Assembly (NCBI GenBank): GCA_008632985.1
Contig: QPGO01000131.1
Location: forward strand, 1 to 64,000
DNA: 64,000 nt
Reading direction: 5' to 3'
Source of the DNA: Psammoneis japonica
Taxonomy: Eukaryota
The position numbers and the translations under genes are program-made. The notes under the pieces are model-generated. The model had not been told where the DNA came from. It worked only from the letters and a program-made list of their open reading frames with translations, and ran no database searches. The stretch's first letter is position 1; each line of letters starts with the position of its first letter. Positions 13,290 to 64,000 of this stretch are shown piece by piece.

Positions 13290-15810
13290 TGTTGCAAGTT
13301 GCAAGTCTTTGTAGACACGGTGCTGTCTGTCACATGTCAAAGCTCTGTCAGCTCTAGCCACTGCAGAGACCTTGATCCCGCTGTTCTTGCAGCTGACTTC
13401 CTCCCAACAACATGTTTGCAAATCTGTCCAATGGCCATGCCTTTTTGTCTGAGACTTGACCATCAACAACTTCAACCACCCGCATGGTGCCATCCCGGCA
13501 CACAATTGCATTGACAGAATAAAATGGGGCATCAAGAAGAGAAGCAACTGATTCAACAACACCTGGCACTCTGATTGCTCATCTGGCGCGCACACTTTCT
13601 GGCCAAACACAAAACAGCGTTGCTCGGCATCGGGAACAAAGTCTTCAACCTTGCGCACTGCAATTCCGCCTTCAATGTCACCACAACACTTCGCGATCAG
13701 TTCAACGACTTCTGTGGCTTCGTCGACAGAACCAGCAATTGACCCACATCCACTGGTGTTTGACTTCACATGATCTTTGACAAAGTGCTGGCCCCAATCA
13801 AGCTTGGCTGCATTCTCCTTCAAAGAATTGTCATTGGGAAAGAATGCAGTCTCTGGAGTGTGGTCCTTGCAAAGCTCACACCATCCTGGCAGTGTGACAG
13901 CTGGTGCAGTCTGCGACACTCGTCAGCGCTTTGCCTCCTTTGGGCTCGATCTTTCGCACCATTCCTGCGCAGTCCTTGGGCGAAAGCATCCAACTGCAGT
14001 GCAGAAGCATCTCCACTGGCTGATTCTTGGCTTGGGTTTGAACTCAAAAGCCAATTCATCAAAGTCAAAGAGCAAGGCCTCTGCCCCTGCTTCCTTCAGG
14101 GCTTGGACAGGGACCCATGCAAAAATGCACACACTGGAGATGACAATCAATTTCTTGGCAGCAGGCACAGCAGCAGCTGTTGACACATGTTGGTGCTTTG
14201 GAGACATTCAGCTGACTTTTTGTTTTTGTTGCTGTTTTTGCAGCCCCCCCTTGCCCCTTCTGGCTGGGGTGCTTCAGATCACAAACAAGCACACAAAGTT
14301 CTGTTTCAACTGTTGCCAAGAGCCAAAAGAGATTTGTGATTGTGTGCATCATTGCATGTTCTTGCCCGCTGTGGTGCCTTGACTCTCTTGTGAGTTTCTT
14401 GGTCTTTCAAAAGTGACTTTGTTGTCTGACCACAATTTGACCAAAGGCACATCACAACAACAAGTGAGGGTCAAAGCAAGCAGCAAGTGAAGAACAGCAA
14501 CAACAAAAAATTTTCACTTGTTGCCACCAGCAGTCAAGTTGTTTTCTAAAAAGTTGGACAAACCTCCCATGCTTCTTGACACTGGCAGAGTGTGCTAACA
14601 TCAAATTTGAGAAAGGTGTGGGTTTTTGAGTTCCCTTTGCCTGTTGCCCAGCACCTGAGCAACAAGCTGTCACAGAAATGGAGTCAATTTGGAATTTTGC
14701 TTCATGTCCAACAACCACTCTTTGCTTGCCAATGAGCAGTGCACATGAGCTGCTGCAAAAATGACCTGCTCTTCAGCTGCTTTAGATTTGGAGGGACCTG
14801 GCAGTTTTCCCCTTGTTGGACAACACATGGAATGAAGTTGTTGAAAAGAGCTGCCTCGGAAGCTTTTCAAAAATGAAAAGGTTGGAGTTGACAAATTGTG
14901 AAGTGCACGCCAGTCGCCAGTGGATGTCTTTTCAATTTAATTGACAACAAAGGAAAGATGGCAGTTTGTGAAGGATTTGAAGTGAAACTGGAAATTGACC
15001 CAGATTTTATGTTGAGGCTTGTCAAGGGTCAAGCAGCTGGAACAATTGAAGGCAAGCAACCTGGCAAAGAAGGTGCGACAACCTGCCCAAGCATGTTTTG
15101 GGTGAGGGCATGACAAATTGTTGCAAGACACCTTTGTGTCATTTTGGTGTGGCGGTTCTTCCGCAACACTTGCAAGTTAGGGTCAGTGGCAAATTCATTG
15201 GTTGGGCACACACCAGAGAGCAACAGTCATGCCACGACTCTTGCACAACTTTCATGGCCCAATCTAATTTCAAAATTGGCACACATGCACTTTGGTGCAC
15301 ACAGTTTTGATGGGAAAGCAGAGTCCTCCCCACTGCCTCTGGCACCCAGTTGAAGAAAAAGTGTCCAATGTTGTTTGTGGAAACAAAAGTGGTTGCATGG
15401 AGCAACGTTGATCTTCCAGTGGCAGTGGCATCTGCAAATGAGGGAGAAGACAATGCTTGACCAGCAAGAAGGCTTTTGCCAAAAGTGTTGTGTTGAGCCA
15501 GTGAAAGGATGTTTGCCAGTTTGCTTTGAAAAAGGCTCATTCTTGGTGCATCTCTGGTGCTGTGAACATTTTTCATCTTGCTTGGGGAGCAGGGACCACC
15601 CTTCTTTTACTGCAAGGAGCAGCAGCTGGAATGCCAAGAGAGCTTGCAGAAATGTGCTCCAGATTGAGCCTTGCTCCCTAGCATCCTGTTTGTTCAGACA
15701 CTGGGCAGTGCGTTTTCTGCCGTTCTGGAGTGGAGAAGCAAAACCAGGCAGGAGAAGAACCAGGGCACAATGATCATTCACTGGACTTTTCTCCACCAAA
15801 TCAAACAAGG
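13290..15810. other. TpA-depleted, TpG/CpA-rich island of decayed sequence
   Basis: Only scattered TA dinucleotides over 2.5 kb versus several per line in the flanking genes; CpG is also low in 14000-15800. Confidence 0.85.
13354..14207 (-). pseudogene. Hypermutated pseudogene of a bacterial-type ATP-grasp (DUF4343-like) protein
   Basis: Reads LLHCSWMLSPKDCA...LTSVADCTSCH.LPGWCELCKDHTPET...LDWGQHFVKDHVKS...DIEGGIAVRKVEDFVPDAEQRCFV...FYSVNAIVCRDGTMRVVEVVDGQVSDKKAW. This matches the family pattern YRGWML...HxLPxWY...TPET...KDYVKS...EGG...RxVEDF...ExRYFV...ExGDGQVSD, with Y replaced by H/C. Confidence 0.75.
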
Positions 15811-15963
15811 ACAGAAGGGCTAGTAAAATGTAACAGGAACGGAACTTAATTCAACAAGCTTGTTGACTTAATAACCTGCAGCATTGTTCTCCCGAAAAGA
15901 GGAAGGTTGGTGCGGGGTTACAACATGACCATCATCTAAGCAAGTGCCAACACCCAAGTGCTC

Positions 15964-17307
15964 TTAGAGCGGGGAGTCACCAGCCTTGGTTTGATTGAGG
16001 AGCGCGGTAAGAGAGTCACGATACGCATCACACGCGTGGTCTCCAAGCATTGTCGTTTCCATGTACAATTGACGCATAACCTTCATCCCACCGTGCATGG
16101 CTCGTCCGCCAATGACAGATTTGTGAGCGCAGCTCTCCCATAGCGAGACGACCCGCCCGGGCACAAAAAGCTCGATTTCCTGCAGCTCTTCTTGGTTGTG
16201 CTCGTCTTTATCGATTTCAGCGTCAAGGAAGTCTGTTAGTTCTTCCGGCTCCATCAACAAATGTTCGTCGTACTTCATCAGATCAGCAAAGTAGGTACGA
16301 GCGGCCTTGAAACTGTCTGGGCTAAGGCCTTTTTCGTCGAGCTTGGAATCAATCTTCATGAAGAGTTTGTGCAACATGCGCAGATTCAACAAGGACATGC
16401 GAGGGACACAATCGGTATTGTTCACCACGGATGTAATGTAGGATTGACAATCCATGCTGGCTTGAAACGAGGCACAGGCCGGAGTTGCAAAAGCATAGAC
16501 TTGGAGGTCCAGCTTAGGGAGACGGTCCTTCAGGAAAATACCCAACAGAGATGATACTCCTGCACCCAACGAGTGACCACACACAACCAGCTTGTAATTC
16601 GTCGGAATGAAGAGATTAGTGATCATATGAAGGGTGTCTTCGAGCATCAAGTTTGCTGCATTCCACATTCCTTCGTGACAACGAATGGACGAATCGCACA
16701 GCTCGTGGGGAATGGCCTTACCAATTATATCGGTCAAGACATCACTCACTGTTGAAGTTCCCTTGATGGACAAGACGACCTCTTTGGATTCGTGATGAAC
16801 AGCGATGAAATGGCCGACTCTTCCAGGCTCTGGGAACGTATCGTGGCGAATCAAGAGGTAATCCAAGGGCCGCAACTTGTCACTCAATTCCAAAAGACTG
16901 TCTTCATATGCCCATTTGGCAAAGTTAACGTATTTGCAGAGCTCTTCGAGTTCCTCGACCTTCACTTTTTCACCTTCAGCTTGGAACCTTCTGTCCTTGA
17001 AGTCTGGGTACAGATTATCGATTTCGTTCTCCAAGTGAACCATGCTCATAAAGCTGGCATACAGCTTAAACCATGGCATGTCATCAGGAATTAAGTCTTC
17101 ACTCTTCTCGTAAGACAGTTGAATCATCTCTTTCATCTTGCTCCATATCACCGCGGGCGAGGCCAAATCCTCGGTGCCTTCCTCATCATCTGATCGCCGT
17201 TTCTTGATCCATTTCGGAGATTTCTTCCAAACCTTTCGCAAGATTACAACCGTTGCAATAACAATCACAACGGTTTTTGGTGTCACGGATGCGGAGAGTC
17301 GACTCAT
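15964..17307 (-). CDS. Class-3 lipase (DAG-lipase-like) with N-terminal membrane anchor
   Basis: Intact 447-aa ORF; VVLSIKGTSTVSDVLTD, CHEGM, VCGHSLGAGV (GxSxG), AFATP, VVNNTDCVPR, DHACDAY. Confidence 0.9.
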   Translation of the reverse strand: MSRLSASVTPKTVVIVIATVVILRKVWKKSPKWIKKRRSDDEEGTEDLASPAVIWSKMKEMIQLSYEKSEDLIPDDMPWFKLYASFMSMVHLENEIDNLYPDFKDRRFQAEGEKVKVEELEELCKYVNFAKWAYEDSLLELSDKLRPLDYLLIRHDTFPEPGRVGHFIAVHHESKEVVLSIKGTSTVSDVLTDIIGKAIPHELCDSSIRCHEGMWNAANLMLEDTLHMITNLFIPTNYKLVVCGHSLGAGVSSLLGIFLKDRLPKLDLQVYAFATPACASFQASMDCQSYITSVVNNTDCVPRMSLLNLRMLHKLFMKIDSKLDEKGLSPDSFKAARTYFADLMKYDEHLLMEPEELTDFLDAEIDKDEHNQEELQEIELFVPGRVVSLWESCAHKSVIGGRAMHGGMKVMRQLYMETTMLGDHACDAYRDSLTALLNQTKAGDSPL

Positions 17308-18440
17308 GTTGACACAACAAAGTCAAGTCGCAACAGGCACGATACTATTCTTCGTCGATAGAGAGAATAGAAGGTTCCAAGGTGACGAATGCGTCGATCG
17401 CATTTTTCCGCAGTCGATCGCGATCTTTCCTCGTTGGACGTGCGCGGTCGCCGGATCTTCCGCGCGAGAGCTGCTTGTGGGTCGCGCGAAAAGATTCAAG
17501 ACGTTCGTCGATCGTCGAAGGTACAGTACTTCTATCTCTACTACATAGAGCTAGAGAGAGGAGTCTCTCTTGAAAGCCTTCTTGCCTCATCCTTTATGCA
17601 GAAGCACATTAGAAAATGAATAGGGCGCCTCTACTTTCGAGGAGAGCCGGCTACGGACAAATGATTCTACCTGAGATCTAGCATTGCAGTGTCGTCCAAG
17701 AGGAGATGTGGCTCGTGCATGAAGTGATCACGTGTTTCGGCATTTCTTGATCTTCATCTGTTGCCAGTTTTTTCAACTCACTTTGCGCTCACAGTGGTGA
17801 CTGTACAAGAAGCAAGAGAGCAGGAATTGTCTCTCCGGCATGCTTCTCCTCGCCCTGTCATCAATTCCACAGTTGTGCTGTGCTGGTCGAGTTCTGGGAG
17901 CATTTCCGCCTTTTCGACCGTGGTTGCTAAATAGCTGTCAATAACACAGGCACAACATCTCAGCACGCGCTTTCGTCGCTGCCATCGTCTTTAATTCTGC
18001 CAATCTATGGCTCCATCCTTTCTACCTCGGCAAGCTCATGGAAGAAGGCAGGACGCTTTTCGCATCGGCATTAGATCCTCGCTGAAACAGTTTCCGCCTT
18101 TCAGTAGGTTGCTTCCTCCTTACTTTTATTTGAGCGACACAAGAACCACAAACGACTTACACGTTCCTCAACCTGAACCAGCTCAAAGAAATGCCAGGTC
18201 CCAAACTTCAGTCGCCCTCTTATCTATCCAACAGGACAGGTATCGTGTACTCATGACTGTAAATGAAAACAAGAGGTTTCGAGGGCAGTAGCTTCAAGAT
18301 GCGGTGCATTGCAACGCTGCGTCAAATGCGCTGTAGCAGAGTGTCCAGTTTCCACTAAGCCCTGGTGGGCAGAGGAGTAAATGCCATGGTCGTTGCCCCC
18401 TTTTGTTTTGCGCTCAATATATTGTAATATTGAATACTTC

Positions 18441-19765
18441 TCACGAACAGTGCGTGTTGGAGAATCCAAGGTAGTGTCGAACGCTAACATCCACTGCGTA
18501 GAGCCGGCAAACGTCTTGAATCAATTTATGATGCGCTGTCTTTTCCTCCATTCGGAGGTCGTCCATATCTTGCACAAGCTCCGTAGTCTCGTTGTCATTG
18601 CCCTTGCTCTTCCGTTGATTTTGGCGTATCGGATCGCGCACCCCAAAGGTGGATGCAACACGATTTAAACTGGACAAGTCAAAAACTGCTAATTCGATAT
18701 CGAAATTTCCAAGTGGGCGAGTAAGAAAGACTGCGGATGGAATTAAATGCTCGTTCCAAAACCCGTGTTCCTTCAAAGTTTCAACGATACATTGAACAAC
18801 TGAAGCAGCGATATCTCGTTTGTTTCTATTTCCGAATGCGCCGTAGTAAGGCATGGTTCCAAATACTCGTTGCACCCTTGACATCGACGCGTGCGTCTCA
18901 TGGAAATGAGCTGTCCGAGCGAAGACAGGAAACGGGAAACTGGGTCTCGAATAACAGCATACACAACATCCTTCTTCTGACGAAGGCTTCGCTGCTCCTC
19001 TTGTCGAGATTTCAATTCGCTGAGATAGTCTTGAGTGACCGATCCAACACGTCTCTTTCTATTTCTTGGATTCTTGGGTGGTGTCAAGTAATCTAGAAAG
19101 AGCTGCCATTGGGTTCTCGAGCCAGTCTTGGGAATCGTAAATGCTGTAACACTTTCAACATCTGTCACACGCGAAGTATATGGGAGTTGCAAAGGCGTAG
19201 TGGCATCCGACAACCAATTATTCACTTGCCACGACCAAGAATCAAACTTTACACTTGGATAGTCAGCTGCTATAACTTGCTGAAATTCAAATCCTGGCTG
19301 CTGACTTTGAAAGAACTTTACCGGACGAAAGTACGAGCAACATGAATGGTTGCTAATGTTCGTGCTATCCATAGCGGCTGTTTTCGAATCTATGATTCGA
19401 CAAGATTCAAACACGTTCTCGGATTCGTTGAAAACCATGTCGTGTTGAGTAGAATCAGGCTCGCTTAGCACATTCGTTTCTTCTCGCTCGAGTAACTTCT
19501 GGTGTTTCATGAAATGCAAGGTTTTGAACCACAACAAACTGACAATCAACAAAAAGAAAATCAACCGAGCAATCCAATAGCCTCTCATAGGATGGCTCTC
19601 AGATATATCAGTATCATCACGACTTAAGCTCTCTTGCGCACCTGCTTGCAAAGACAACAATGATTCTTCCTCATCCTTGCGTGAGGAGTCTTGCCCGCGC
19701 CCACCACGCGGTGCATCTGTGTGCTTATTTTCCTTGCGCAAATGGCTAGTTCTTCTACGTTTCAT
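18441..19765 (-). CDS. Type II membrane sulfotransferase-family-2-like protein, frameshift near 18800
   Basis: TM helix LIFFLLIVSLLWF; 5'-PAPS-like IPKTGS and 3'-PB-like VIRDPVSRFLS; continues in ORF 18441-18884 (NEHLIPS...LYAVDV). Confidence 0.6.
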
Positions 19766-20093
19766 GATGTGATCAACAGACACAAGGTTTCAGGCTTATA
19801 GCTTAGAAGGTGGGGAGCGCCAAGGAGTGGTGCTTGTGTGTTGTGGGCAAACGCCATGGTGACAGCGGTGGATTATTTTTTCTGCGATCTCCGGTCTTCG
19901 ATCTTCTCATTCTGTTCTGTTTCCGTTCAGGCTAATGTGCTTTTCCGTCTTCAGCACTTTTCGATTTCGCTCGCTCGCTCGCTCGTTTAAATTTCAAAAA
20001 GAGTTGTACGTTTGTCATTTTCACACAGGGAAAAGCAAAAAAGCAGAAAAGCGCAAGTCAAAGCACACAAAAACAAGAAAACGATTCAGCGCC

Positions 20094-21839: not shown

Positions 21840-21967
21840 ATTGATGAATAATAGAAACTAGAGTTGATGAAAAGAAAGTCTACCGTATGAAAGTAGCCGG
21901 ACATGCCGCTTCCACTTACTGTATTGTTTCGGCCGAGAAGAGACTGGATTTTCAATTTCATCCCATT

Positions 21968-23146: not shown

Positions 23147-23384
23147 GATGATGATGATACTGTGGTATGGTCGATAGAACTAGCTCAGTGGTTGTCGGCA
23201 ACAGCAGCAACAGCGAGTGAACAATAAAATAACTTCCAACTTCATGAGATATAGCGAGTCCCGAATACGAGTCCCGAATACTTTACCAAAATGTTGGTGG
23301 TTTGGTTCATTCGGGATTCGCTTGAACGAACTGATTTTGACATGACGACACCTGCCTCATTCTCACTGTTGTCAACCGATTGAC

Positions 23385-24621
23385 TCTATGGCTCCAACCT
23401 CCCATAGAAACCATTTATATGAAAATGTTTGGCATTAAAATGTGCACATTTTTTTGAGTTTGCATGGCACGCATGATCTTGCCTTGCTTGGAGCTTGGAC
23501 CATCAACCCTGACGCTGACTTTTTTGTTGCAGGAGCGCTTTGTTGCAACAAAAAACATCAGAGAATGATGGGAAACAATCACGGATCCAGAACCGCTGGA
23601 AGCCTTCAAAAAATAATTTGTGTGCTTGTCATTGACTCACAGATGGACCATCACAAAAAAAAAATTCTCAGCGGGGTGACAACGACGAGATCTGTGGCGC
23701 TCTTTTTGACACATCAAATGACCCCTGCTTGCATGCACAAAAATTAATGGATGGTTGATTGAAACCCACGCAGGATTGAAGGGCACATGGCTTTATGTCA
23801 TCAAAGCATTGAGGTCATCACAGAAGTGAAAACAAAAAATGAGCTGCTGTTGTTGCTGTTTTGTGCAGCTGACCAGCTCACTTCTCTTCTCAGCGTGCCA
23901 TCATTGCTTTGCCAGCACCACTTGAATCTGACTTGGGTCAAAGCACAACTGAGTCAGAAGACAGAGCAAACAGGAGTGTGAGGAGGAGCAATGATGACAC
24001 CGCTGCTTTTGTTCCTGAGCGGCATTTTGGGAATTGGCATGAGTGAGTGCTGCCAACACTGCACTTTTTGTTGAGAGCCCACCATTTGCTGTTGTGTTTG
24101 AAAGAAGAAAACTCACACATTTTGTTCTCACCCACACACTGCATTGCATGGTGGACTCTTGTTTTGTGGACGAGATGAAACAGCCCCACCCCTCCTGTCA
24201 ACCAGCCGGCCTTTTTTGGCACAACAGTCCAAGCGGCGCTGCTGATGGCAAATGAAAAAGACACCCCAACCAAGCTTGGAGTGTTTCAGAGTGGGGTTGG
24301 CAACAAAATGCTCCAGTCGAGTGTCACAAAAGAGGAAACATTCGATGACACACACACAGCAGCACCTCTGCAAAGGGCCCAACAGAGAGGATGCTGTGGC
24401 AAGTGTGGCTGATGTGATCACAAGATTGCAATCAGAGCACTCTCAAGGGGTGCAGATTCTTGATTTCAGGTTTTGGAAAACAGAACTTCAAGGCCTGCAA
24501 GGACACCCTTTGTCTTTTTCAGAAGTGGAGCCAGCGGCAGAGAACATTGGGGTAAAGCAGCGTGCCAAAACATGCTTGCAGATAAAAGAGGATGATTAAT
24601 GGGAGGGTTGGAACCCACAGA
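23385..24621. mobile_element. Putative non-autonomous TIR element with TpA-depleted interior
   Basis: Left tctatggctccaacctcccat (23385-23405) vs reverse complement of right end tctgtgggttccaaccctcccat (24599-24621); interior 23430-24590 nearly TA-free. Confidence 0.45.
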
Positions 24622-25956: not shown

Positions 25957-28900
25957 CACTACATGAGTCAGGGGACACTACAGCCGTAGGCCTGGTACAA
26001 AGCAGAGGCGCGTAGAGAAGTGTACCAGACATCCCGTGGGCCTAGCTCATGACCCATCATCACAAATAAAAACGGCCAGCCACATTATTTTTGCTTTTCA
26101 ACGGACCAACGGTGTTGTCGTTATCAACGACATCACCGTTGTAGTTGTCTCTATTCACAACCGCGAGTGTCTCATTTCTTGGCATGTTACAAAGGAAAGG
26201 TAAGTGAGTGTGCTGCAACGGGCTCTTTAGTTTATGTTGCACTGCTGCAGAACTCAATCTTAGCCTTTGTTTCGTCCCCGATGTTTTCATCCTCCAGAAA
26301 GACTCGCTGCCAATCTTCAGGTGCCTTGTTTTCCACCGCAAGGAAATAGATTGGTGCCCAAGACTTTTTGATGACTTCTTCCTCTGCAATGACCACACAC
26401 TCTCCTGATGGGTCAGTCTCCAACAAGACACCAACTCTTTCCGGCCCTTGCTGTTGAACTCGGGCGGCTCTTTTCTTGGCAGCTTTCCGCATGACCTTCC
26501 GCCTCTTCGATTCAATCTTTTGGACAATGGCTTGGACATCAGGCAAGTGGTTCTCTGTGACTCGACGAGCATGGCAATTGACCCTTTGTGCAGTGTCAAC
26601 CATTGAACTTGTTGCACTGCAGGCATCACTCAGGTGCGGACGGCAGTTCTCAAAGCCCCCTTCGTCACATCGCCCTTGCATTTTAAGCCGTTCACTAGCC
26701 TGAGCTCCATGATGTTCATCGCGATGCATGCCTTGACACACACTGGCCCAGTGTTCTCATTTTTGTCTGGAAACTCTTCTCTCCATGCTTTTGAGTGCGC
26801 CGCAGTCGCTTCCCCCATTTTCAGCAAGTCGCCACCCTCGAGCTTCCGCTGAGTTTTCATTGGCTTTGCTTTGGCAAGCAACGGTGTTGCCACCTTTTTT
26901 GTTTTGTCCATCAACTCAACAATGGCAGCATGCACCTCTGGACTCTCATCCTTGTTGTGTGCATTGCATGTTGCTTCGCAGATCTTGTTCCACACGGACA
27001 GAACCTTGATGCCAGCTGCGTTCGACATGTTGCATCCTCCGAACATGGGATGGCAGGTCGCGTTGCCGCACACTTCAATTGACCTTGTGAAAACATGGTG
27101 TGCCGGTCCTTTCGGCTTGTTGTCGGACTTTTCACATGCATTGACAGCTTCAAGGACAGTTGACGCTCCACGCGTGAGCTTCGTCAAGACTCCGAATTCT
27201 GTTTCTTCGGAATGCTTCTTTTTCTCGGCAACCAAACACTCGAGATTTGCTTCGTGCCTTTGCACTGTGGATTCCAAGGGAGTGTCCTTGGCCCTTTCTG
27301 CAGCTGGTGCTGCCTCCACTGACTTGATGTCTTTGTCACAATCCCGGTTGGCTTTCAGGAGTGCGTTGCAGTCCTCGGAGGGCGTCTTCTTTCTTGCACT
27401 CAGCATTGTTTTTAACATCAAGCACATGCTCTCCCCAAGGTGCTTCCTTCTCAATGTTGGCAAGCCGGTCTCGAATGAGTGGACAGAGATGGTGTGAAAA
27501 CGTGCTCATTGTAAAATGCGCGGGAGAGCTGAGGTCCTTGCTTTGATCTTGAACGAGGAAGGCTTCTTTCGTTTGGCTGGCTGAGGTGAGTCTGTCTGAT
27601 CGATCTTGTGTGGCCGTGTGCTTAAAGTCACCGCCGTTTCGATTTTTTGTGCACGCCTCAAAGTTGGCTGTTGGGGAGTTCTCGCCAGATCTTAGAGGAG
27701 CATCGCAGTGCTTCCATTTCCCTTTCTCTTCTGGTTTCTCATGAACTTCCATCCAGCGAGGAAGATGCTTTGAAAAATCTGCAGCTTGCATCGTACATGT
27801 GGGACACGAGCAAAGCACTGAGGCGGTCCCCATGCCGCTCAAAATGTTTTGCTGCTTCCCATCATGAGATTGAAGAGCAAACATCCCTTGGCTTGACATT
27901 CTTGCACTCGCACCGACCGGAACGATGAGCGGTGCAGGGATTGGGAAGCGTGCAGACATGAGCTTGCAGGAAGGTGAGTGAGATTCATCATGCACTTCAA
28001 CGCCAGTGCACACAATCGCATTGTCGGGGGCATTCGATGGCTTCTCGTTTGCATTGGCAAGGACTGGCTTTGCTGCCAGCTTTCTCACAAGATTGACAGC
28101 AGCTTCTGGTGACGCAGCAACGCTCCCTTCCACAGACAATGTAGCTGGCTTCTCTCGGGGTTGGTGTGCTGGTAGATCTGATGCAACATCTTGAGATCGC
28201 TCAAGCAAGATGTCATCGGACAACACCGATTCCTCTGCACTCTTGTCTTGCAGCTCCACAAGCACAGGGATGCAAATCGGCACCTTGCCATCCTTGTCAA
28301 CAATTTCGATCAGCAGCACGGTCACCTTGTCGTCAAGCAGCAGCTGTGGGAAAGCCTGCAAGGGAAGATCCTTTCGGAATGTGTGCTGAGACGAAGATTC
28401 TCCCAGCATTCGCTGGCCTCTTCCACCACGGCAAGACGGGTTCCAGTCCCAGGTGGGACTTTTTGTGACATTGGGCCCGCAGAATTCTACGTGCGAGCTC
28501 CGTGGTAAAATTGTCAAGCAATGAACACATGAATGATCGCCAACAGAAAAAGAGGCAATTTTGCGAACGCATCTCCTCCTCCACACTTGAAGTGCATTCT
28601 TTACAGCATGCCCGGGTGTGTTCTTTAGACATTAAACAGAAAGCCTTTGGCTTCGCAAAACAGGCAGTGTGGAACAATTTTTTACAATAGAACACGCAGA
28701 AATGTACGTGCGAAACATGCGACGGATGATGAAAAATAATTGTGTCACAGTTCAGCAGTGCGAGGTCCCACCAGAGCTGGAACACGTCGCAAGCACCCCA
28801 CAGTGATGGGCTGTGTTGCCGTCCTTGCGGTTGGCAATGCGGATCAACAATGAAGTGAGATCGCCTCCTTTGTCAATGCCAAAGACTGGCACAATCATGG

Positions 28901-30734
28901 ATTTCAATGCGGAGAAAGATTCAGAGGCTTCGAACTCTCCGGTTTCTATGGCTTTGGCTGTCAGCTTCTCAACCACCAAGCACAAGTCACGTGGAAACCA
29001 CATCACGCACGATTTCTTTTTCGATTCCCTCCTGTCGGTGAACAATGGCATTTTCATGATCCTTCTTGGAATGTCCTCTTTCTTGACGCATTCATTCACC
29101 AGATTACGAGCATTCGGAGGGAAGACGCATGACAGGTGCTCGGGTCGAGAATGCGCGAGAAAAATGTTCAAGCGGTGGAGCGCGTTGCAGCTCATGTGGG
29201 GATCAACACATTGCCGCAATGCAACAATCTCTGGAGGAGCAAATGTGATTTTCTCTTGTTCAACAAGGATGAGCTTTCGTTTCTTTGCAACTTGCTGGAG
29301 CACGGCTGGGCTTTGCTCTGGGCGCTCGTCCAATTGCTTTTCAATGGCGGATGCTTTTCGTTTTGTCACACGCTTCTTCAGATCTTTCATGTCTTCAGGA
29401 ATTTTCTTGCTCTGTTGAAGATTTGAATGCTTGGCAGAGAATCCTCCGCCATTCTTCGTGCACTTCAAAGTGACAATTCCCTCATCCGTGGTGCACTGCT
29501 TCAGAACCGAGAATGCAAGGGTTTGAAGTTCTGTGTCGGGCTTGTGCAATGAATCTTTCAACACCGAATCACAAAATGGCTTGCTTGCTTCTGCCACAAG
29601 TGCGTTTGGATCTGGCTCAACTGGATGAGCAATTTCTGACAAAGTGGCAGCAGCAATGTTGTTCAGATTCGTCAGAGAGGTCGACGACTCCTCTGCGGCA
29701 TCTTCCGATTCCTTTTGATTCTTCAACAGTCGACTGGAAGATTCATGAAGAGAAAAGTTTTCCATCAACAGATCACTTGTCAATTCTAGCATCTCTTCCG
29801 GACTGGTGCTCTTGAGATGCTCCTGAATCTTCTGCTGGAGAGTCGCTCGGGTTGGCGGATGCACTGTTCTTGGTGGGCTTGACCCCACCGTGTCTGGAGA
29901 GATGACTCGAGCGGGAGGGGGGGAGGCACTTTCATGGGAGCCAGTTGAAGGAGGGGAGGACATTGACTCACTGGATGACTTAACAGCCTTTGCTTCAGCA
30001 TTTGCCACTTGGCTCCTTGCTCTAGCTCGAGCATCCCTGTCGTCTCGAATCACTTGCTCGTCTCAGAGGCAAGCAAACGGTTTTCCTTTCTCGGCCGTTG
30101 CTGAAACAACTGTTGCAACAGCGGCATTGTAAAGTGCACTCACTTTGAGCTGCTCATGAAGTTGAGTAATCTTCTTTCCATAAAAACGGCCACATGCATC
30201 GATGAGCGAATCTTGGTCGATGCGCACTGCCTTGGCAAAAAGCAAAGCGCCAGGGATTCTTTCTTTGCTTTTGCTGTTGTGTTTGACCACCCAGCACGAA
30301 CATCCGGGGATGACTCCATCCATGCCACCATTTTTGTTGAATTGGTCAATAAATGCACGTACTCTGGCATGTGCTTCGGTCGGAGAGACCTTTGAAACCT
30401 TCGCTTGACTCTGACGGATGGAGGCAACAACAGCGACGATGTGTGAGAAGATGTGAAAGAAGTTGTGTGAAAAAACAGCATCTAAGGAAGTAAATCGAGC
30501 GGCAATCACTATACCACATGCTCCCAATAGGGTTTAAAAAGACTCTCCAGATGCGATTACCGCTCGATTATCAACATTAACGCCGCCGTGAACGATTTGC
30601 GTGCCATGGTCGATGTCATTTTTTCTCTTGCAAAAAGCACGAGGATTGTGAGGTGGCGGACGAACGCGCCAAAAAATATTTTAGTCGAATTATTCAGCTA
30701 TAAGGTCCCTTCACGTAGGCTGACTCATGTAGTG
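25957..30734 (-). mobile_element. 4.8-kb DNA transposon, Chapaev/Transib (RAG1-like) type, with perfect 15-bp TIRs
   Basis: TIR CACTACATGAGTCAG at 25957-25971 and its reverse complement at 30720-30734; flanks ATTC / ATTT; interior encodes a broken DDE transposase. Confidence 0.85.
26232..30527 (-). pseudogene. Decayed Chapaev/Transib/RAG1-core-like transposase
   Basis: Collinear ORF pieces with VFGIDKGG-x-LLIRIAN (about 28864-28886), HDGKQQNILSGMGTASVLCSCPTC (about 27795-27866), SSPAHFTMS, HPMFGGCNMSN (about 27040), GRCDEGGFEN (about 26650-26670); almost no Tyr codons. Confidence 0.7.
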
Positions 30735-30738
30735 ATTT

Positions 30739-33094: not shown

Positions 33095-33589
33095 ACCAAA
33101 GTGTACAGCTCCATGAATGTACTTGCTCTCTTCGTTCGATCTCCACTAGGCTATGAAACAGAAAAAAAAACCAATTGTCTTGAAATTGAAAATGAGCAAA
33201 GATACATATACCTGCATGACTTGGAAAACTCCGGCACTGCTAGCGAAGCAGGAGGGAATCTAGCATCTGATTTTGAAGTCCCAGAGAGAACTGAAAGAAG
33301 CCGCCCTCTGGCATCTCAGTGTGGCGATATTGTAGTACAACATGCTTGACGAGAAGCAGCACCACTGTGCCGTACTCTTTTTTAGCGCTAGAGAGACGCT
33401 TGAACAATCTTCATTAGAAAACGTCTTGCTACTACATGTATAATGAGATTACTTTCGGATTGGCTTCATCCACTCATATCAAATCAATCTATTCCGCCTG
33501 TAGTTCCTGCTAGTTTTTACTGTTCGAGGCGCAGAAATCGCACGAGCACGTCTGGCACTCGGCGTCCACGCAATGCCCCAATTAGCAAC

Positions 33590-35850
33590 GAGGAGGCTTC
33601 TGATGGCCAGCAGTGCAAAGGACATGGTTGGTGGTCATCTCAAAACCAGGACCGGTGTAGTCAGTGTTCTGCTCCATGACCCACTGCCAAAGGAACCAAT
33701 TACCAGAAGACGAACCACTGTGCAGACATGACACTCTCACCTCCCTTGACTCGCTTAACTTGAGGGTGCTTTCAACGGCTCTCTCCATTGCAAGCACTTG
33801 CTCAAATCCAACCTCAATCTCCCATGAAACTCCTCCAGATCCAAAGAAACTGGTCTCAAACCTGGCACTGATAGACTGCAAGAATCTGCAGGACTCTTCC
33901 ATGTTGACTGAAGTGGACCTTGTTGCAGTCATGGACTGAGTGACTGTCATGGACACATGCAGCCCAGACTCACCGGTCCTCCACTCTCCAATGACAGGCA
34001 CAGTTGACACACCACAGTGAAGATTGTCTCAAACCCAAAGTGAAGGCTGTTCCATGATGTGCCATCTTTGTGAATGCCAAAATCTTGGACACTGAGTTGC
34101 ACTCCCTTCACACCACATTTGTCGTCAACAACAGCAGGGCTCTTCCAATCTCCAAAGAGTCCCTTTTCAACTTCTGCCCACTGCGCAGCTCCTGACACAG
34201 GATTCTCACAATGAATCTTCCATCCATTGAGGCAGCGTCATCCTCATGATGGCCGCAAAAGTCATCCAACCTCATTTGAGCTCTGTTGACAAACAAGCTG
34301 TGGGGGCACATCTTTTTCTGCTTCCAGTCACCAAAGAGGCCTTTGTTGATTTTTTTCTCAGTTTGTGTGCACCAATGAAAGAGTGAACAGAATGCAAGCT
34401 CCAGAACATTGGTGGAAGTGTTGTCTTGGTGCTTGCCAAAGTCTTGTTGGAGTTGGGTTTGAGCATCAAAAATCAACCTTTCTCCTCTGCTTGCCGTGGT
34501 CTCCAATCACCAAACACACCAGGCTTGATTGTCTTGTCTCAATGTCTTTTCCCAGGAGAGGTGCTCACTTGTCACCTGCCTCTTGCAGAGGGGATGGTGG
34601 GTGCAGCATCCATGCTGTCACACTGTCCTTTGAGCCAGCACAGAGGCTTCAGGGGTGTCAGCGGCTCTGCCATGAGCAGAGTTTTTTGCAAGGACAAGGA
34701 AGACTGAAGGAGCAGAGGGTTTCATTTTGGATCTTTTTGCATTGTTCATTGCTTGTCATTTTTGGTTCATTGTTCGTTGAATTTGTGAGCAACTTTCGAC
34801 ATGAAAAAAGCAGAGTGCTGGATCAGCAGTGGCTGCAAATTCCATGACTCAACTCAAAACTGCATGTGCACTTCCAGCACCAGCAGCGCACCTCTGTTTC
34901 CACCATGTGACTGAGAAATGTGTTGTGTGTTGTTTTTCATGTGCACATTCAGTGTTTTAAAACATCTTTTTTGTCTGCTTGATGAGTGTTGTCAGCCAAG
35001 TCATTGTCGTTGTTGGTGTGCGCTTCACAAACAAAATTGTGGCTGTGCGGCAGAAAGGGAAAATGACAAGTTGTTGAATCTTGGAAGGTGACATTGATTC
35101 ATGGTTTGTCTGTGTGCCACTGCTGACTTCAGCACCAGAGCCTGGCATTAAAGATGCACAGAAGCAAACTTGCGCAACAAGCGCACGCTGCAAGAAAAAA
35201 GAGGGTGCTGGCAGCGTCCCTTTCTTCTTCTTCTTTGATTTCCACCACTCCCACCATTGGCAGCAAGGCAGCCATTTGCAGTTCAACATGTGCTTTTTTG
35301 ACAGATTCTGGCAGCATCATGTCCCATGTCAAAATTTGTGCTTGCCAGCGAGCGCCCTTTTCTTTTCTTGCTTTTGGTGGAAGCCTTCAACAAGCTCATT
35401 TTTGATCTTACAAATTCTTCCTTTGACATTGATTGCAGCCACCTTGTCATTCTGTTCCACCAGCTTTCCTTCAACTGGGGGTCCTGACACTCACAAATCA
35501 CGTCAAAGCCTTTGCAAGCACCGAACATCACCGCACGCTGGTGGCTTCGTCGACAAACCATCAAAAAATCCCGTTGTCATCACTTCAAGTTCATGCCAAT
35601 GGGCTTTTAACAATGGTGAAAAGTGACACTTGGGTGGTCTCTCATCGGTCTTGTTCATGGAAGATGGTGTCACTCTCTTTGACAGCATCGAGAAAGTGTG
35701 TGCATGCCTGAGCCAAGGAGCGCACCCCCCCGCCTTTGGGGCACAAACAACAAGCAAGAGCAAAGAGCAAAGGAATGAACAGAGGCAACAAGGACTAGAT
35801 TCAAAAGCATTGTGAAGCGCCACACGGCTTACGAGCGACAGTTCAGCTGG
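33590..35850. other. TpA-depleted island of decayed coding-like sequence
   Basis: Very few TA in about 2.3 kb, CpG also low; many overlapping stop-poor spurious ORFs rich in C/H/Q. Confidence 0.8.
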
Positions 35851-36126
35851 AACAATGCTTGTCAAGAAGATCTTTGCCCGCCATCTTCAATCTTCAACTC
35901 GATCGTCCTGCGAGGAAATGCTGGTCCGCGGAATCCGCATCCCGCGCGAAGGTAAGGCACCGTCCGTCCTTCGCATCCGAGCACACAGAGACGAGACACC
36001 GAGACACGTGCGACGATATCGCCATGATGATGGTGTTATTGGTCGCTACCGTACGTCGCGCTGTTCCTTCTTGAGCAGGACCTTAAAGCAGAAGTATCAA
36101 TCTTTTGGTAAATCAGAAAGACAACC

Positions 36127-44929: not shown

Positions 44930-46197
44930 CTGTGCGGTAAATGTGTTAACATTCATGCTAAATTGAAAGCCTGAAAGCATTATAGAACTGCAAATGATCT
45001 GTGCCAATGATCTGATCTTTCTTTACCCTGTCACCCTTTGGACAAAAGGATGCCATCATTCATCTTGTTCTGCTCACCCTGGATTTGCATCCCATCATTT
45101 CATGCCCTTGTGCACAGCAAACATGCTCATGGAGCCGAGACGTGTTTTGTGTAGATTTTGACCTGAGCAGTGACACATTGACAGCTCATGATCTGTGGCA
45201 CTCATCCAAGATGCCACGCAAGCAAGATGTGGCAATTGCTGAACAGCTCAACAGGGAAGCAAATGGAATTTGGTGACCTCAGCCCTCCAGAGTGTGGCTT
45301 TGGACCAACCACAAGGCTTCTGCAGTGGCTCCCCTGCAAGACTGAGAAAGACACAAGCAAAGTCCGTCAACGTCAGAATTTTTGGCCTGAGAAGGTGTGC
45401 AACAAACCACAGGGAACAAGCACCATGTTGCACTTTGTGGCATTCTTTGCTTCAATGCATTCACAATGTGCACATCAACAGTGTGCTGTTTGAGCAATTG
45501 CTCCCCCACAGATGCTGCTGATCATCTCTCAAAAGCAGCGCCAGCTTCGTCTGTGACACCGCTGGCCTCTGGTCTCATGCAGCACACCTCAGTCAAAGCA
45601 GCACACTGTCTTTTGCAGCTCTGATCTGAGTGGCTTGTTCTCCAATGCTTCAGGCGGTGACTGCACAAAAGGAACAAGCACACACTGTGCAAAAGGGGGT
45701 GGGGGAACAAGCAGAGACCAAGCAAAATTTGAGCCCAAATGGGGTGTGCATAAATTCAGCATGGCCCGACAGCACCCAGCACAAAGAGGCAGAGAGTTGC
45801 ACAAGTTAACAACATCCAGGTGCAAGCAATGATGGCCAGCACTTCACCAGCCACAAAACTTTTGTCTTGTTTCCTTTCCATTGAGATCTCGTCGTTGGGT
45901 GCACCTGCTTGCAGTGGTTTCTTCTTGCACAGCATTTTTTGTTCTTGTTGCTTTCCTTGTCCAGAGAACAGTCCATCATGAACACAAGAGATTGCTGTTT
46001 GAAACAACATGAGGTGCTTGCCGTTGTCCATTCCTCATTTCGCTGATGAAAAAGGGGTTGATGCAAATGGCGACATCCAAGTGTGCACCAGCCCTGAACA
46101 GGAAATGCAAGGCACCACAGAGCACCCAGCAAAAAGCTTCCAATTTTCAATTATCTTGAATTCAAGCATGCTAGCTGTGGATCGTTTCACTGCACAG
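44930..46197. mobile_element. TpA-depleted island, possibly a decayed TIR element inserted at TA
   Basis: Left ca|CTGTGCGGTAAA...catgctaaattgaa vs right reverse complement ta|CTGTGCAGTGAA...catgcttgaattcaa; interior almost TA- and CG-free. Confidence 0.45.
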
Positions 46198-58301: not shown

Positions 58302-58439
58302 TGAACAGATCCACATAGGATTTATGGTTCTTCTACCATAGCTTCTACTACAATTGCTCTATCTAGCAGCAGAAATACGATTGTTCTAGAAACTTGCGTT
58401 GCGGCACAAAAACATACATTCGCCAATGAATTCCGAGTC

Positions 58440-61400
58440 CAACTTGATTCCTGCGGTGGTGCGCAACACCAAGCAGGGCTCGCCCTTGCACACAGAGATC
58501 CATTGAACCAGTGACATGACTGTGTCCGTGTCTAAACAGCCACATTAGAGTCAAAGAGAGTGACAGGTGACAAAGTCTGTGACCTCTTTTTCTGGTTGTG
58601 CACATCGTGTTCACCAGCACTTGTTTGTTTGTGCTGTGAGCAGGTGTGACACCCCTCGTCCCATGAAATCAGCTCTCTGCATTGCCAGTCACAGGGGCAG
58701 CATCCAAAAATCAAATTGGAGACAGGAATCCAGAAAGATTCTGGGAAGTCATTAGCTTCTTGGAAACACTGGCAAAGATGCTGGCACACCAGTTTTCCCC
58801 AAGCAGGTTGTTGGTGCAAAATGCAAAAAAGAAGCTGGCACAGGGAACATGGGGGGATTTCTCTCCAGCTGAAAAACACAGCCAACAGTGGCACACTGAT
58901 GCAGCCAGCCATGTGTGAGAGAGGGAGAACAGTTGCTGCTAAAAACAAACCTGGGCACTTGAAATGTGGGTGTTTTGGGGCTCAGGAGGTGGCATTGTTG
59001 AAGGTGCTGTGCTGGGTGGTCACAAGCTGGTGCTGGCACAAAGCCAACAGAGACAGCAGAACCATCAGCCACTCCCCCCTTCTTCCTGGTGCAGGAGCTG
59101 CCAGAGTGGTGACAGACCTGCAAACCAGGAATGGTGATGACACGTGAGTCTCAAAGAGATCTGCTTGCAGTCTGCTCATCCTGTGCAGTGGTGTGCCTGG
59201 TCAGCCAACACCCTCTCCTGATTTGGCATGTTGAAAATCAACAATTTGGGTCACAAACAGAACAAAAAGTGGGGTGACAATTTGCTGATGAAATACAGAT
59301 CAAACTGGATGACTCTGGGGAGAGGCACGTGCACCAAAACATGCAAAAGAAGGGCTGTTTTGCAGACTCCAGTGAACAGAAATGTTGACTGCATGCAGTG
59401 CCCCATTGCGACATGGGCATGGCAGGCATGCAGTGTTGACAGCCTTGGTGAGGTCATCCCTTGGGTCAATGACATCAGAAATGTTTTCAGCAATGAAGTG
59501 CCCTGCTGCTTCCTTCCAGCCACAGATGACAAACTGCCACGGGATGTTGACATGGCATGAGCACTCAGTTTAGAGTGCAATTTTGTTTGTGATCTCATGG
59601 CTGGTTGATTGTCAACAAACAATGCAGCAGGACTGACTTGGGAAAATCCAAGTTTCTTCTTGAGGATGGAATGGAAACACAAATCATGTGTGTTGTTGTT
59701 TGGTGGTGGCAGCACCAGCAGAATGAAATTTGGCCTCAGTCAATCTGGTTGCCATCATGGATGGCATCTTGCACCAACATGATCTTGCACCAACAGGAGA
59801 CAGCAGCACTGGCTGACTTCTTGCAGCCACACCCAGCAGCAGACTGGTGGTTGGAAAGATCATTGCCATGTGCAGCATCCAAGAATGCAAGCAATTGAGC
59901 GAGGGAGCTGAGGGAGGGAATTGGTGCAAGGGAGCTGCAAGAAGCTGTGGGTGGGGGAGTTGGGCCTGGCTCCTGGCTCAGCAACAGACATTCAAAATGA
60001 CACATGGGCAACATGGAGTCCTTCTTGAAGGACTTCTTGTGTTTGATGTCCCAACACTTTGATCCTTGAAAGCAACTTTCCATTCCCTTTCAAGCTGTGC
60101 AGCATGCCAAGGCAGGTGGTGATGCAAAGTTGGAGGAGGTTGTGATGGCACTCTGCCGACATGAGGGCAAAGCATGCAACAATCTGTCAAGAAGGTTGCA
60201 AGAGCTAGAACCTTGTGTTTCAGCAAGTTCTTTGATTTCCAGGGCCCTCTTCCAAAGGACCAACACAGGAGCGCAGCTTGGAAAGAACTCCATCACTGGC
60301 AGAGAGCCATTTGACAATCTGAGCCAGATTTGTTGGCATCTGATTTGAGTCAACCATGACTCTTGAGTGCCCAATTGACACAGCTGTGACATGACATTAA
60401 AGTGGAGTCATCATGCTGGTGCACACCAATGCCATTAAATTTGGTGCACAGAGACCCAGACACTTGAGCAGCATGACATCTTCACGGGCCACCCCACAAC
60501 CACCTGGGGCAAGCAACAAAAAATGTCCACTTGTTGAAGAGGAAAAGGGTGTGCTTTTGCCCTCAAACACAAGTGCAAATGCACTTGCAATGAATGGTGT
60601 TCCAGAAAAGGAGAGAGCTTGGCATCATTCAAAATCCCATTGATGTGGTTTTCCCAGACAACACTCTGCTTTCAGAAATGGAGAGCAGCAATGCCAGACT
60701 GCATGTCTTTCATCTCATGAGCTCAAGCACATGCTCTTCTTTTCATCTGTGAGTGGTGGGACAAAAATGACATGTTCTGCCACGAAGGCATGCTGGAGCT
60801 GTCAAGTGTCTGGGTGCTGCACTGGACAACAGTTTCAAACTCAGGGTTGGCAGCATGTCATGAAGTTGTCAAAGCCCAGCAGTTGAAACAATTTGTGCAC
60901 CTGCAATCTTGTTGCAAGTGGTGAAAACAGGCACACCAGCACAGAGCCACCACGTGAGACATCTGACGTGCAGGTGCAACTGAACAACTTGGCAGTGGCA
61001 AGCTCCACTCCAAACATTGGATGCAATTAGAGTGTTTCATTCTGCATGAATGAGTCTTGGAAAAGTGGTTGCCAATGAAGCAAAACTTGTCAACTGAAGT
61101 TTCTGTGGATTTGGCCAGGAAAGCTTGCCATTTTGAGCTTGTTGGGGAGATGAACAACCACCCACCAGCCCTTCACAGTGCCAAGCATGCTTGGCAAGCA
61201 ACCTTGACCCAAGATGTGCAGGATGAGCATGGTGGGATGAGCATGCAGAGGCTGGATTTCAGATTGCCAGAGCCACCAGGACCAAGGTCCAGATGAGGGC
61301 CACCAGGGGTCCAATGCTTTTTGAAAAAACTGTCAGCCAGCAGACCTTGAAGTTTTGTTTTTCAAAAAGTGAAAGACCCAGGACTGCTCACAGCCATGTT

Positions 61401-62000
61401 TCAAACCTTGCTCTGCACTCTCCACATTGCAAGTCATGAGGTCTGAGGTCCAGACAAAAACCACTGAAGGTCTGCCACTTGACCCTTCAATCACAGGACT
61501 TGAGCAAATCTCCAAGGGTGGAGATGTGCTCACTTGCATTGCAGATGTGTTAAATGAAATGTTTTCAGACACACATGGGTGACAAAGAATTCTCAACATT
61601 TCTGTTTGGAGTGTGCATTTGCCAAACATCTGGGGAACCATTTTTGCAATTTAGAAAGTTCAATGTTGACTTTTCACACCAGCTTTTTTGCAAGCCACAT
61701 GCATGAACAGAGAGGAGCTAAATCCCAACCTTTGACAATGGCGGCTGTGATGAGTTGCTGTCTCACAAATGGAGCAACAATGCCACACCCTTGGAGCAAA
61801 TCTCTGCTGGTGGAAATTTGTTCCCAACAAGCAAAGGCATCTTGCACACTTTGCACAGATTGTGCATGATGACATTTTCAATGCTGTGTTCATTGTGTTG
61901 TGATGCAAATGTGCGGTGTCACAAGTTCCTCAAGAAGCAAAGTGCTCCGGTGGTCAAAGGATTGAAAAAACAAAACATTTGACCTTGAGGTCTGAGATTC
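58440..62000 (-). mobile_element. Heavily mutated Ty1/copia (CoDi-like) retrotransposon relic, RT/RNase H region
   Basis: Minus strand gives SSCNLLDRLLHA..SCR..AITTSSNFASPPALACCTA*KG...KCWDIKH (about 60030-60210; cf. FSYRxLLGxLLYAYVTCRPDxxYAITTLSKF), FLDAAHGNDL (about 59855-59885; cf. DAAHxNDL) and FHSILKKKLGFSQVSPAALFVDNQPA (about 59600-59690; cf. LRSILxELGFxQxxPTxLYxDN). Limits approximate. Confidence 0.75.
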
Positions 62001-62054
62001 ACACAAAAACCATTGGAGGTCCAACACACACATTTGTGAAAAAAAAATGTTGAA

Positions 62055-62721
62055 CCTTCTGACAGAATTTGAACAAGAATGACTCGCTCTTGCTCTGCCC
62101 CTGTCATTCAAGCATTGGTGGTGTCAGGTGGACATGGCGCAAGCAGAACTCTGGCCCACTGCAAGATCTGGTGCAACACCTTGCTGCTGTCTCCATGGCA
62201 GACAAGTCTCCATGCAGAGACCATCACAGGTGCCCCTGTGAACAATGAGGACATGTGTTCCAGGGTCAGGAACAGTTTCATTTTGGTCTGGCCAGGTGGA
62301 GGTGCCTGGTCTCATGCCTGTGATGACACGCCCAGATGTTCAGACACCCAGACAGCTGAGACACACAGTTGGTGTGACTCGAATCCAAGCCCACTCGCAC
62401 CAGAATGCACCACCATTGTCACCAACAGATCACTCCACTCCCCAACACAAAAACCATTGGAGGTCCAACAGGCATGACACCAGGCACCTCCCCCTGGCCA
62501 AACCAAAAGTTGTTTCTGACCCTGGAACACATGTCCCCATTGTTCACAGGGGCACCTGCAATGGCCTCTGCATGGAGACTTGTCTGCTGTGTAGACAGCA
62601 GTGAGGTGTTGCACCATGTCTGGGCTGGAGCTCTGCTTGCTGTGTCCACCTGAAGTCATTGACACTCAAATGACAGAGACAGAGCAAGAGTGAGTCATTC
62701 TTGTTCAAATTTTGTCAGAGG
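62055..62721. repeat. Long inverted repeat (arms about 62055-62321 and about 62468-62721, spacer about 145 bp)
   Basis: For example caggtgcccctgtgaacaatgaggacatgtgttccagggtcag vs ctgaccctggaacacatgtccccattgttcacaggggcacctg; also direct repeat acacaaaaaccattggaggtccaaca at about 62001 and about 62445. Confidence 0.92.
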
Positions 62722-64000
62722 TCCAGACAAGTGAAAAGGTGTTGGAAGTCCAACACCATTGGAAAAACTGCAGGGTGGACCTCAAGGGTTTTGGCTCAAA
62801 ATGCAAAAGGCCTCAAACTCCTCTTTTTTGATGACAAGCAAGCATTGTGATGATGAAATTTGAGCTGTCTGAAGGCATTGCTTTTGACCCTGTTGCTCCT
62901 GTTGGAAAGAAGTGTCGCTTTGGCATGGGTTCTGTTGTTCTGTTGCCAAGAAACAATCCGCGTCAATCTGGCAGGAAGAATTTGTTCAATCATGAGTGGG
63001 GGGCACTGCCTGTGTTGACACACATGCCAGACCAAGTTGATGGCAAACACCCCATGTCAATGTTGAACAAAACCCATGTGGCAAAGGAGCGCCAAACAAC
63101 AAACCTTCCCATTCAGCAACTCCTGCAGGAAACTGGAGGAGCAAGGAATTCCATTCAAACCCACTGCAACATGTGCAGAACTCAACACTCTGCTGCATCA
63201 AAACAAACAAGCTGTTTCTTTTTGCTGGACTGCAAACAAATCAAAGAGACTTCAGATGGGTTGGATTGCTGGGGTGTCAAACATCTTTCAATCACCTCCC
63301 ATGCCAGTCAATGCCACCCAAGGTTCCCACACAAAATGGCGCAGAGCAAAATTCAAAATCAACATCATCATCAACAACATGGCCTCAAGCTCCATTGCAT
63401 TGACTGCTGGATGAATGAAATGAACAAGGTGTTGTGTGCCAACACATGCCATGCTAGAAGATCTTGAGTGGCAGTCATGAAAAAATGCAGCTGGGGCCAT
63501 CCCCAGCCAAACCACAAGAGAAGACATGCTCAACAACATCAACCGGAGTGCCAGAAACTGACAAACATCAGCAGCAAGAGCTGTGCACACCAGAGATGTC
63601 AACATCAAAAGTGCAACATGTGGCTTGCATCCAACAAGACACCTCTCCACAGCCTGCAAAGAAGGCTGGTGTAAAAAGGAAGGCAGGGCAATGAAAACAT
63701 CAACAATGGCTTGATTTGAGAGCTGCTGGGCCTCACACCATGTCAAGAAGCACCCTGTCAACTGCAGCGCAGATGAGCCCATCAATGCAATGGCAGCTGC
63801 AATTGATGTGGATGGCAAAGTGAAGAATGCTGAAAGAGTGCGATGTCAACAGCCAACACAGCCGTGTCATCACATCCATCTCAGAGAGTGCAGTCTCCAT
63901 GTGAAGTGCACCACTCAAGCTTGAATGTTTTTGTGCATGACAGATGCAGCCATGGACTTGACAAAACCAGCAACAGACCAGAAACACAGTGAGGTGCAAA

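Follow-up and report, generated by a model that had tools for sequence, protein, structure and literature searches.

Along the first 64 kb of contig C131 of the diatom Psammoneis japonica (assembly G000; 91.4 Mb in 597 contigs), hereafter the window, six blocks have lost nearly all of their TpA dinucleotides, raising the question of what removed them and why the few survivors share a sequence context. The window is gene-dense and eukaryotic, as indicated by Pfam matches and by spliced contigs, which are present in run X2 (such contigs cannot rank expression). TA rho is 0.04 to 0.11 in the six blocks and CA and TG are raised; GC content is unchanged, the islands having a GC of 0.47 to 0.50, similar to the remaining window. 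Genome-wide, TA is somewhat low (rho ~0.55). We are close to certain that a targeted TpA-specific mutation process operates in repeat-associated DNA, and regard chromatin-guided adenine deamination as a reasonable, if far from secure, account of its mechanism.

The first-pass annotation of the window had proposed that TAs surviving in the islands are mainly YTAR (Y, pyrimidine; R, purine), and all 18 positions that it listed are indeed TAs in this context, each lying 1 to 2 bases to the right of where it had been placed. Islands were called with a dinucleotide hidden Markov model (HMM) and also by CpG loss alone, the latter to avoid the bias that selection for low TA would introduce into a test of YTAR survival. 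The HMM islands (12,465 bp) retain 41 TAs, 27 of them YTAR, compared with 329/1,909 outside. CpG-loss islands give 34/60 against 307/1,851 outside for the window (Fisher P=8e-12), and 144/273 against 1,088/6,418 (P=4e-39) when it is combined with four 50-kb blocks from the three largest contigs, a sample chosen by coordinate and not a random sample of the genome. The proposal is therefore borne out, yet "mostly" amounts to 53 to 66% and YTAR is itself depleted about 3-fold. The claimed near absence of ATAT, GTAC and ATAC also holds (0 versus 130, 0 versus 164 and 1 versus 129 in HMM islands and outside, respectively). Equal depletion of all NTAN classes, named by the annotation as the contrary outcome, was not found in the larger sample after correction for composition, retention being 0.025 for RTAY, 0.071 for YTAY, 0.085 for RTAR and 0.323 for YTAR. 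A two-rate model, in which each strand is hit at rate a if a pyrimidine follows the A and at rate b otherwise, yields a/b = 3.3 from RTAY and YTAR retention and predicts 0.09 for the mixed classes (0.07 to 0.085 observed). How long a site survives thus depends on its two strand rates added together, and YTAR lasts longest. In the younger block at 26262-30482 just 10/29 surviving TAs are YTAR. TA-low DNA accounts for 90.7 kb (~45%) of the 200 kb in the four 50-kb blocks, and CpG loss is preceded and surrounded by TA loss, 43 kb being TA-low with CpG kept and 0.9 kb CpG-low with TA kept.

The direction of change was established in two families of miniature inverted-repeat transposable elements (MITEs), using nearly unmutated copies as the ancestral reference. 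MITE1 elements (~500 bp, CCC..GGG ends, TTAA target duplication, relatives across the genome), which we take to be piggyBac-like, include four copies that keep 30 to 47 TAs and others that keep 1 to 12. MITE2, a 396-bp element with terminal inverted repeats and a 4-bp target duplication, has six nearly unmutated copies (29 to 36 TAs) and a graded series below them. Over 1,864 site-copies at 71 TA sites, TA has become TG in 743, CA in 676, CG in 16 and another dinucleotide in 91, and is retained in 338; each site goes one way, to TG or CA and rarely to CG, and once changed is hardly ever hit again. When a piggyBac-type element inserts, its two TTAA target duplications are identical. In MITE1 the left and right duplications differ in 17/23 copies (some of the right ends could be misread where copies carry deletions, in a few cases), so the change arises in place, after insertion; three unmutated copies have TTAA on both sides, and both duplications of the window copy now read TTGA. 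The reversed polarity, from an ancestral CG through TG or CA to TA, is ruled out by the target-duplication asymmetry together with the rarity of CG (16/1,864). Unmutated young MITE copies sit within fully erased islands, which implies that, compared with transposition, mutation proceeds slowly or in episodes. The same loss is seen in a Copia family, analysed in 20 of 40 matches plus the query, in which TA is lost at 914/1,383 site-copies, compared with C>T at 182/8,526 CpG and 54/20,832 non-CpG sites and a non-TA rate of at most 0.0095; per dinucleotide, TA loss is ~15-fold faster than CpG deamination. This Copia-like family (L192:880-3447, minus strand, and L201-L220) is young, with a GC of 57% and at least 40 copies at 96 to 98%; RTAR is missing from the sense strand among its 66 TA sites, which may reflect prolonged exposure to the mutator. 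Probable haplotig duplicates (L020, L032, L084, L088, L099 and L117) were left out, as were two MITE1 sites of doubtful ancestral state from the competing-risk fit and the A-tract and hairpin analyses described below.

A>G and T>C changes are almost confined to TpA, as in the type of hypermutation reported for the chlorarachniophyte Bigelowiella natans (bioRxiv 10.64898/2026.01.13.699255). In MITE2, A>G is found at 457/1,291 TA adenines versus 26/3,383 of all non-TA adenines, with 7/1,565 at AA and 0/377 at GAA sites; CpG C>T stands at 41/712. By following base the A>G counts are TAC 155/314, TAT 200/435, TAA 57/312 and TAG 45/230. RTAR sites become CA (290) more often than TG (89) and YTAY sites TG (368) more often than CA (109), which identifies the changed pair as the A of TAY, equivalent to the T of RTA on the opposite strand. 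In a competing-risk fit to 1,749 site-copies the base 3' of the A is the main factor (C 3.7-fold, T 3.9-fold and G 1.2-fold relative to A), and more distant bases have smaller effects; TAT and TAC are equally hot, and TACG is not among the hottest contexts. The annotation had left the target as approximately TAY or RTA; the context stands as TAY, the ambiguity is gone and the preference is 3.7- to 3.9-fold, not absolute. TAs flanked by A-tracts are kept far more often (0.40 versus 0.05, 9/38 sites; 0.64 versus 0.19, 7/31 sites). A model derived from the MITEs carries over to the independent Copia family for both strand choice (Spearman 0.29, P 0.027, 57 sites) and retention (Spearman -0.36, P 0.003, 66 sites).

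The mutations are single, scattered and strand-symmetric. Permutation revealed no strand coordination or clusters (MITE2 P 0.93 and 0.68; Copia P 0.92), features that repeated rounds could blur, and Copia has no sense-strand excess (residual -0.03 +/- 0.19). With limited power, neither processive patches nor adjacent double changes were detected and no dependence on CpG distance was found at MITE TA sites; a hairpin effect was likewise not apparent, there being no link to predicted unpairing at 69 MITE sites, where power is low. Homopolymer slippage is low, at 1/167 run-copies (MITE2) and 12/298.

Mutated DNA comprises DNA transposons, retrotransposons, duplicated host genes and low-copy border DNA; single-copy genes and ribosomal DNA (rDNA) are spared. 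Three methyltransferase copies and one deaminase copy are TA-erased, their Tyr codons alternating to His or Cys. All eight dispersed, near-identical 18S rDNA loci are unaffected, to which selection or homogenisation could contribute; the units (L120-L127) are spread over at least seven contigs without a single array. Borders of the mutated DNA appear to advance: in an apparent allele pair (contigs C41 and C317) a 726-bp border stretch has 15 TAs in one allele but a single TA in its counterpart, and the 20 substitutions include 12 TA losses and 3 CpG losses, all in the same allele. This low-copy stretch adjoins a multi-copy repeat and has an unmutated 75% paralogue, which suggests a spreading chromatin domain in preference to homology pairing, as does the single-copy target in B. 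natans. A homology trigger would have to accommodate mutated gene duplicates, eight of eight spared near-identical rDNA loci and mutated low-copy border DNA. In other diatoms, none of the 21 metagenome loci of at least 2 kb (of 34 around CSN5) has a 500-bp window with TA rho <0.18; these contigs are short and gene-rich and the result is uninformative.

A TpA mutator acting on genomic DNA in repeat-associated, probably silenced, chromatin would account for this distribution, with targeting presumably by a chromatin mark (CpG methylation or heterochromatin) and not by homology pairing. The lesion would be conversion of adenine to hypoxanthine by a zinc-dependent deaminase, which may work distributively on transiently opened duplex, and the hypoxanthine would be read as G during replication. 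The observed preference for a 5' T and a 3' pyrimidine, with A neighbours disfavoured, appears to resemble that of TadA-derived editors, for which a preceding T is reported to be the most favourable base and a preceding A the least, activity being increased by a following C and reduced by a following A (PMC8989541), and whose guide-independent genomic edits are reported as A>G at TA genome-wide (PMC13225742). These editors are engineered and act on single-stranded DNA in R-loops, as described, whereas the process in the diatom is natural and locus-targeted and hits TAT as hard as TAC. The base pairs of A-tracts are reported to have long lifetimes and to open slowly (PMC5393899), so that A-tract protection fits an enzyme catching transiently open duplex. 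No AAG/MPG glycosylase match was obtained in the G000 family search.

Candidates for the deaminase in G000 include ADAT2 and an APOBEC-fold gene that is single-copy and TA-normal. The APOBEC-fold protein has ten unnamed relatives (E <1e-16) and its nearest named matches are mammalian APOBEC3; its structural model (pLDDT 78) matches APOBEC3/AID and has predicted N- and C-terminal helical extensions. Its start codon appears to be shifted out of frame by one base within a homopolymer, which probably reflects an error of assembly. A second APOBEC_N match in G000 lies within an unrelated open reading frame and was rejected. That diatoms and chlorarachniophytes share an adenine base-editing defence, in which a dedicated deaminase guided by silent chromatin acts at T-A-Y in duplex DNA, is a tentative suggestion, and it is improbable that the editor is the APOBEC-fold protein (C2:247035-247994), a case in which an APOBEC would have changed its target from cytosine to adenine.

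Several points weigh against adenine deamination. The sequence cannot tell which base of the pair, A or T, bears the lesion, and a TadA-type enzyme is a candidate agent only. Endonuclease V is present in G000. The APOBEC family acts on cytosine and the repeats examined have no non-CpG C>T signature, which leaves the APOBEC-fold gene as a lead only. The TadA/ADAT genes of G000 look mostly like a housekeeping set, the TadA-like gene keeping D at the position equivalent to D108. ADAT2 of G000 has the residue equivalent to N113, an N needed for DNA activity; this N is common to eukaryotic ADAT2s. Amphioxus ADAT2/3 is reported to make natural A-to-I editing of DNA possible, its ADAT2 preferring GAA, TCG and hairpin loops and editing C as well (PMC10354150), none of which is seen here, and the absence of GAA changes and of a hairpin effect makes the diatom process unlike it. 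TA selectivity is far stricter than in the engineered editors, and strand clusters are missing, unlike the products of single-stranded DNA deaminases. Finally, copies within one family share ancestry, so the counts are not fully independent.

The first rival explanation, which we consider unlikely, places the lesion on thymine: an enzyme would alter the T of RTA to make it pair with G, and the expanded RID/DNMT4-like methyltransferases may be involved; A>G and T>C are indistinguishable by sequence. Diatom DNMT4 is reported to be RID-related (PMC9998398). The C5 DNA methyltransferases of G000 (L064-L073) are an expanded set with 27 matches, including at least three intact DNMT1/4-type genes (L065, L066 and L072, the last adjoining a chromodomain exon) in addition to TA-erased copies; amplified copies on contigs C297 and C301 have been destroyed by the TA mutator, and the named eukaryotic relatives of a G000 methyltransferase are from diatoms. 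TpA>CpA is moreover the exact reverse, at the same dinucleotide, of the CpA>TpA change of repeat-induced point mutation (RIP). However, the DNMT4 label of these genes is provisional, TA loss does not depend on CpG distance, the G000 family search returned no TET/JBP match (a weak negative), and we know of no chemistry by which a C5-methyltransferase would turn T into C.

Error-prone synthesis is marginally less likely again. A Y-family polymerase (pol eta-like) would misinsert G opposite T while filling repair gaps or replicating silenced DNA, and the five IMS-family loci in G000, the scattered, strand-symmetric changes and their co-location with CpG decay agree with this. The WA motif of pol eta includes AA, however, and AA sites are changed in just 7/1,565 cases in MITE2, where 20/21 copies also have no TA transversion; CpG proximity has no effect, and TA-only loss covers 43 kb compared with 0.9 kb of CpG-only loss. 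Improbable, too, is passive chemistry combined with exclusion of repair, whereby closed chromatin would prevent the repair of spontaneous lesions, or of errors of replication, arising at TA steps that open readily. Although A-tract protection fits duplex breathing and an AAG match is lacking, loss of mismatch repair should raise homopolymer indels, and just 1/167 run-copies vary in MITE2 with most TAs lost. Spontaneous adenine deamination is slower than 5-methylcytosine deamination, whereas TA loss in Copia is ~15-fold above CpG deamination, and the activity in B. natans is reported to be ~1000-fold and specific to certain lines (bioRxiv 10.64898/2026.01.13.699255).

Editing of RNA or of reverse-transcription intermediates, followed by integration, is very improbable: G000 has two A_deamin-family genes and ADAR is reported to favour a 5' U (bioRxiv 10.64898/2026.01.13.699255), but DNA MITEs, target duplications and host-gene copies are changed on both strands, Copia has no sense-strand excess, and the alteration of one allele in place and the asymmetric target duplications contradict it. 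The second of the A_deamin genes (ADAT1/ADAR-like; L063:6171-7887, plus strand), found besides that on contig C40, has no RNA-binding domain in the frames listed. Composition drift, selection against TA target sites or an assembly artefact has a negligible probability, since TA is somewhat low genome-wide but GC is unchanged, the changes are polarised, unmutated young copies lie inside erased islands, and contigs of run X1 (possibly from the same sample and a check on assembly only) reproduce island DNA with 6 differences in 3,836 bp, excluding an artefact. The annotation's rejection of composition drift is thereby upheld. A TA photoproduct was dropped as not repeat-specific.

With adenine deamination as the favoured reading, the nearest precedent is the ~1000-fold, TpA-only A>G/T>C mutation of two viral insertions in some clonal lines of B. 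natans, for which ADAT2 is proposed in a preprint whose main text contains no diatom and no flanking context (bioRxiv 10.64898/2026.01.13.699255). The two systems, as far as the preprint describes the latter, are alike in being TpA-confined and regional, in affecting foreign or mobile DNA, in leaving TpA-poor clusters rich in CpA and TpG, and in that a single-copy region can be affected. They differ in that B. natans belongs to the Rhizaria and has two viral regions with a TpA rho of 0.45 and a directly measured rate, whereas the diatom has mutated transposons and duplicated genes, a TpA rho of 0.04 to 0.11 and ~45% of the 200 kb sampled affected, together with a 3'-pyrimidine preference, A-tract protection, creeping borders and spared rDNA. 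This kind of process is therefore already in print for one unrelated alga; new relative to the preprint are the second lineage of the stramenopile-alveolate-rhizarian (SAR) group, the targeting of transposons and host duplicates, mutation to near saturation, the fingerprint of T-A-Y preference with A-tract protection, distributive action on two strands, advancing borders, spared rDNA and the APOBEC-fold candidate. We found no report of the signature in diatoms in the literature searched, which covered few subscription papers.

RIP is a premeiotic C>T change at CpA, set off by homologous copies, that occurs in strand-coordinated clusters. The diatom process resembles it in that dense, dinucleotide-specific transitions kill repeats and duplicated genes and leak into flanks, and in the presence of putative RID-related genes. 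RIP creates TpA, however, whereas here TpA is destroyed and non-CpG C>T is rare (54/20,832 in Copia); strand-coordinated patches are absent, near-identical rDNA is untouched and low-copy DNA is mutated. The process thus behaves as RIP in reverse without being RIP, whose defining substitution it lacks. With AID/APOBEC systems it shares a 5'-T preference, a deaminase-based defence and an APOBEC-fold gene in G000; those systems produce C>T/G>A in clusters on one strand of reverse-transcription intermediates, in contrast to A>G in place on both strands. Known mutagenic defences such as RIP and APOBEC attack cytosine, and an adenine-directed one has been directly seen in a single preprint. The diatom adds near saturation over a large share of a genome and a fingerprint (T-A-Y, A-tract protection, distributive action on both strands) that any candidate enzyme must reproduce and that can be compared directly with the 231 B. 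natans mutations. If the reading is true, a naturally occurring deaminase of DNA adenine would be important for base editing. The process also converts Tyr codons to His or Cys and removes stops, so that genes predicted and transposons dated in genomes of this sort will be misjudged.

Table 1. Location of TA-depleted blocks and MITE copies in the window and of the APOBEC-fold gene in G000.
Feature	Coordinates	Strand	Remarks
TA-erased island	13356..15820		CpG-poor core from ~13982; 7/10 surviving TAs are YTAR
TA-erased island	23437..24552		3 TAs remain
Younger block	26262..30482		TA rho 0.11, CpG rho 0.71 (largely kept)
MITE family 2 copy	28434..28789	-	Partly mutated
TA-erased island	33519..36016		On the right side TA loss extends ~500 bp past CpG loss
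TA-erased island	45025..46151		3 TAs remain
Largest, oldest island	58416..64000		rho TA 0.04, rho CG 0.11; 13/16 surviving TAs are YTAR
MITE family 1 copy	61483..61961	+	~40 TAs reduced to 3; right end read by eye
APOBEC-fold deaminase	G000:C2:247035-247994 = L193:7035-7994	-	Pfam E 7e-10; Foldseek E 1e-8 to APOBEC3C

The G000 family searches yielded further genes of related classes. One 491-amino-acid frame (L037:313-1785, minus strand) fuses a zinc deaminase domain to a 2-oxoglutarate-Fe(II) dioxygenase (DIOX_N + 2OG-FeII_Oxy), and a related deaminase copy (L079) is TA-erased. Two dCMP-deaminase domains (L033/L036) lie in tandem, apparently in one gene. OTT_1508 has one match in G000, in TA-erased DNA; MT-A70 has none, and the search control was likewise without a match.

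Within the window, the largest island ends shortly past the window edge and its sequence is reproduced by contigs of run X1. Its MITE1 copy is followed at 62060-62680 by another high-copy element with inverted arms, with a summed depth of >1,200 in run X1 and an opposite-strand joint at 62171/62618. The younger block has a paralogue on contig C4 at 80 to 84% identity, with many CA/TG swaps, and belongs to a ~4.8-kb element (25953-30734) with long stop-free frames, a C4 paralogue and no Pfam match. The first island has faint 68 to 69% matches on two other contigs. The end of contig C158 is a haplotig of positions 1-27799, 99.5 to 99.8% identical, and differs from 13100-27798 by four substitutions, all four of which fall in the first island.

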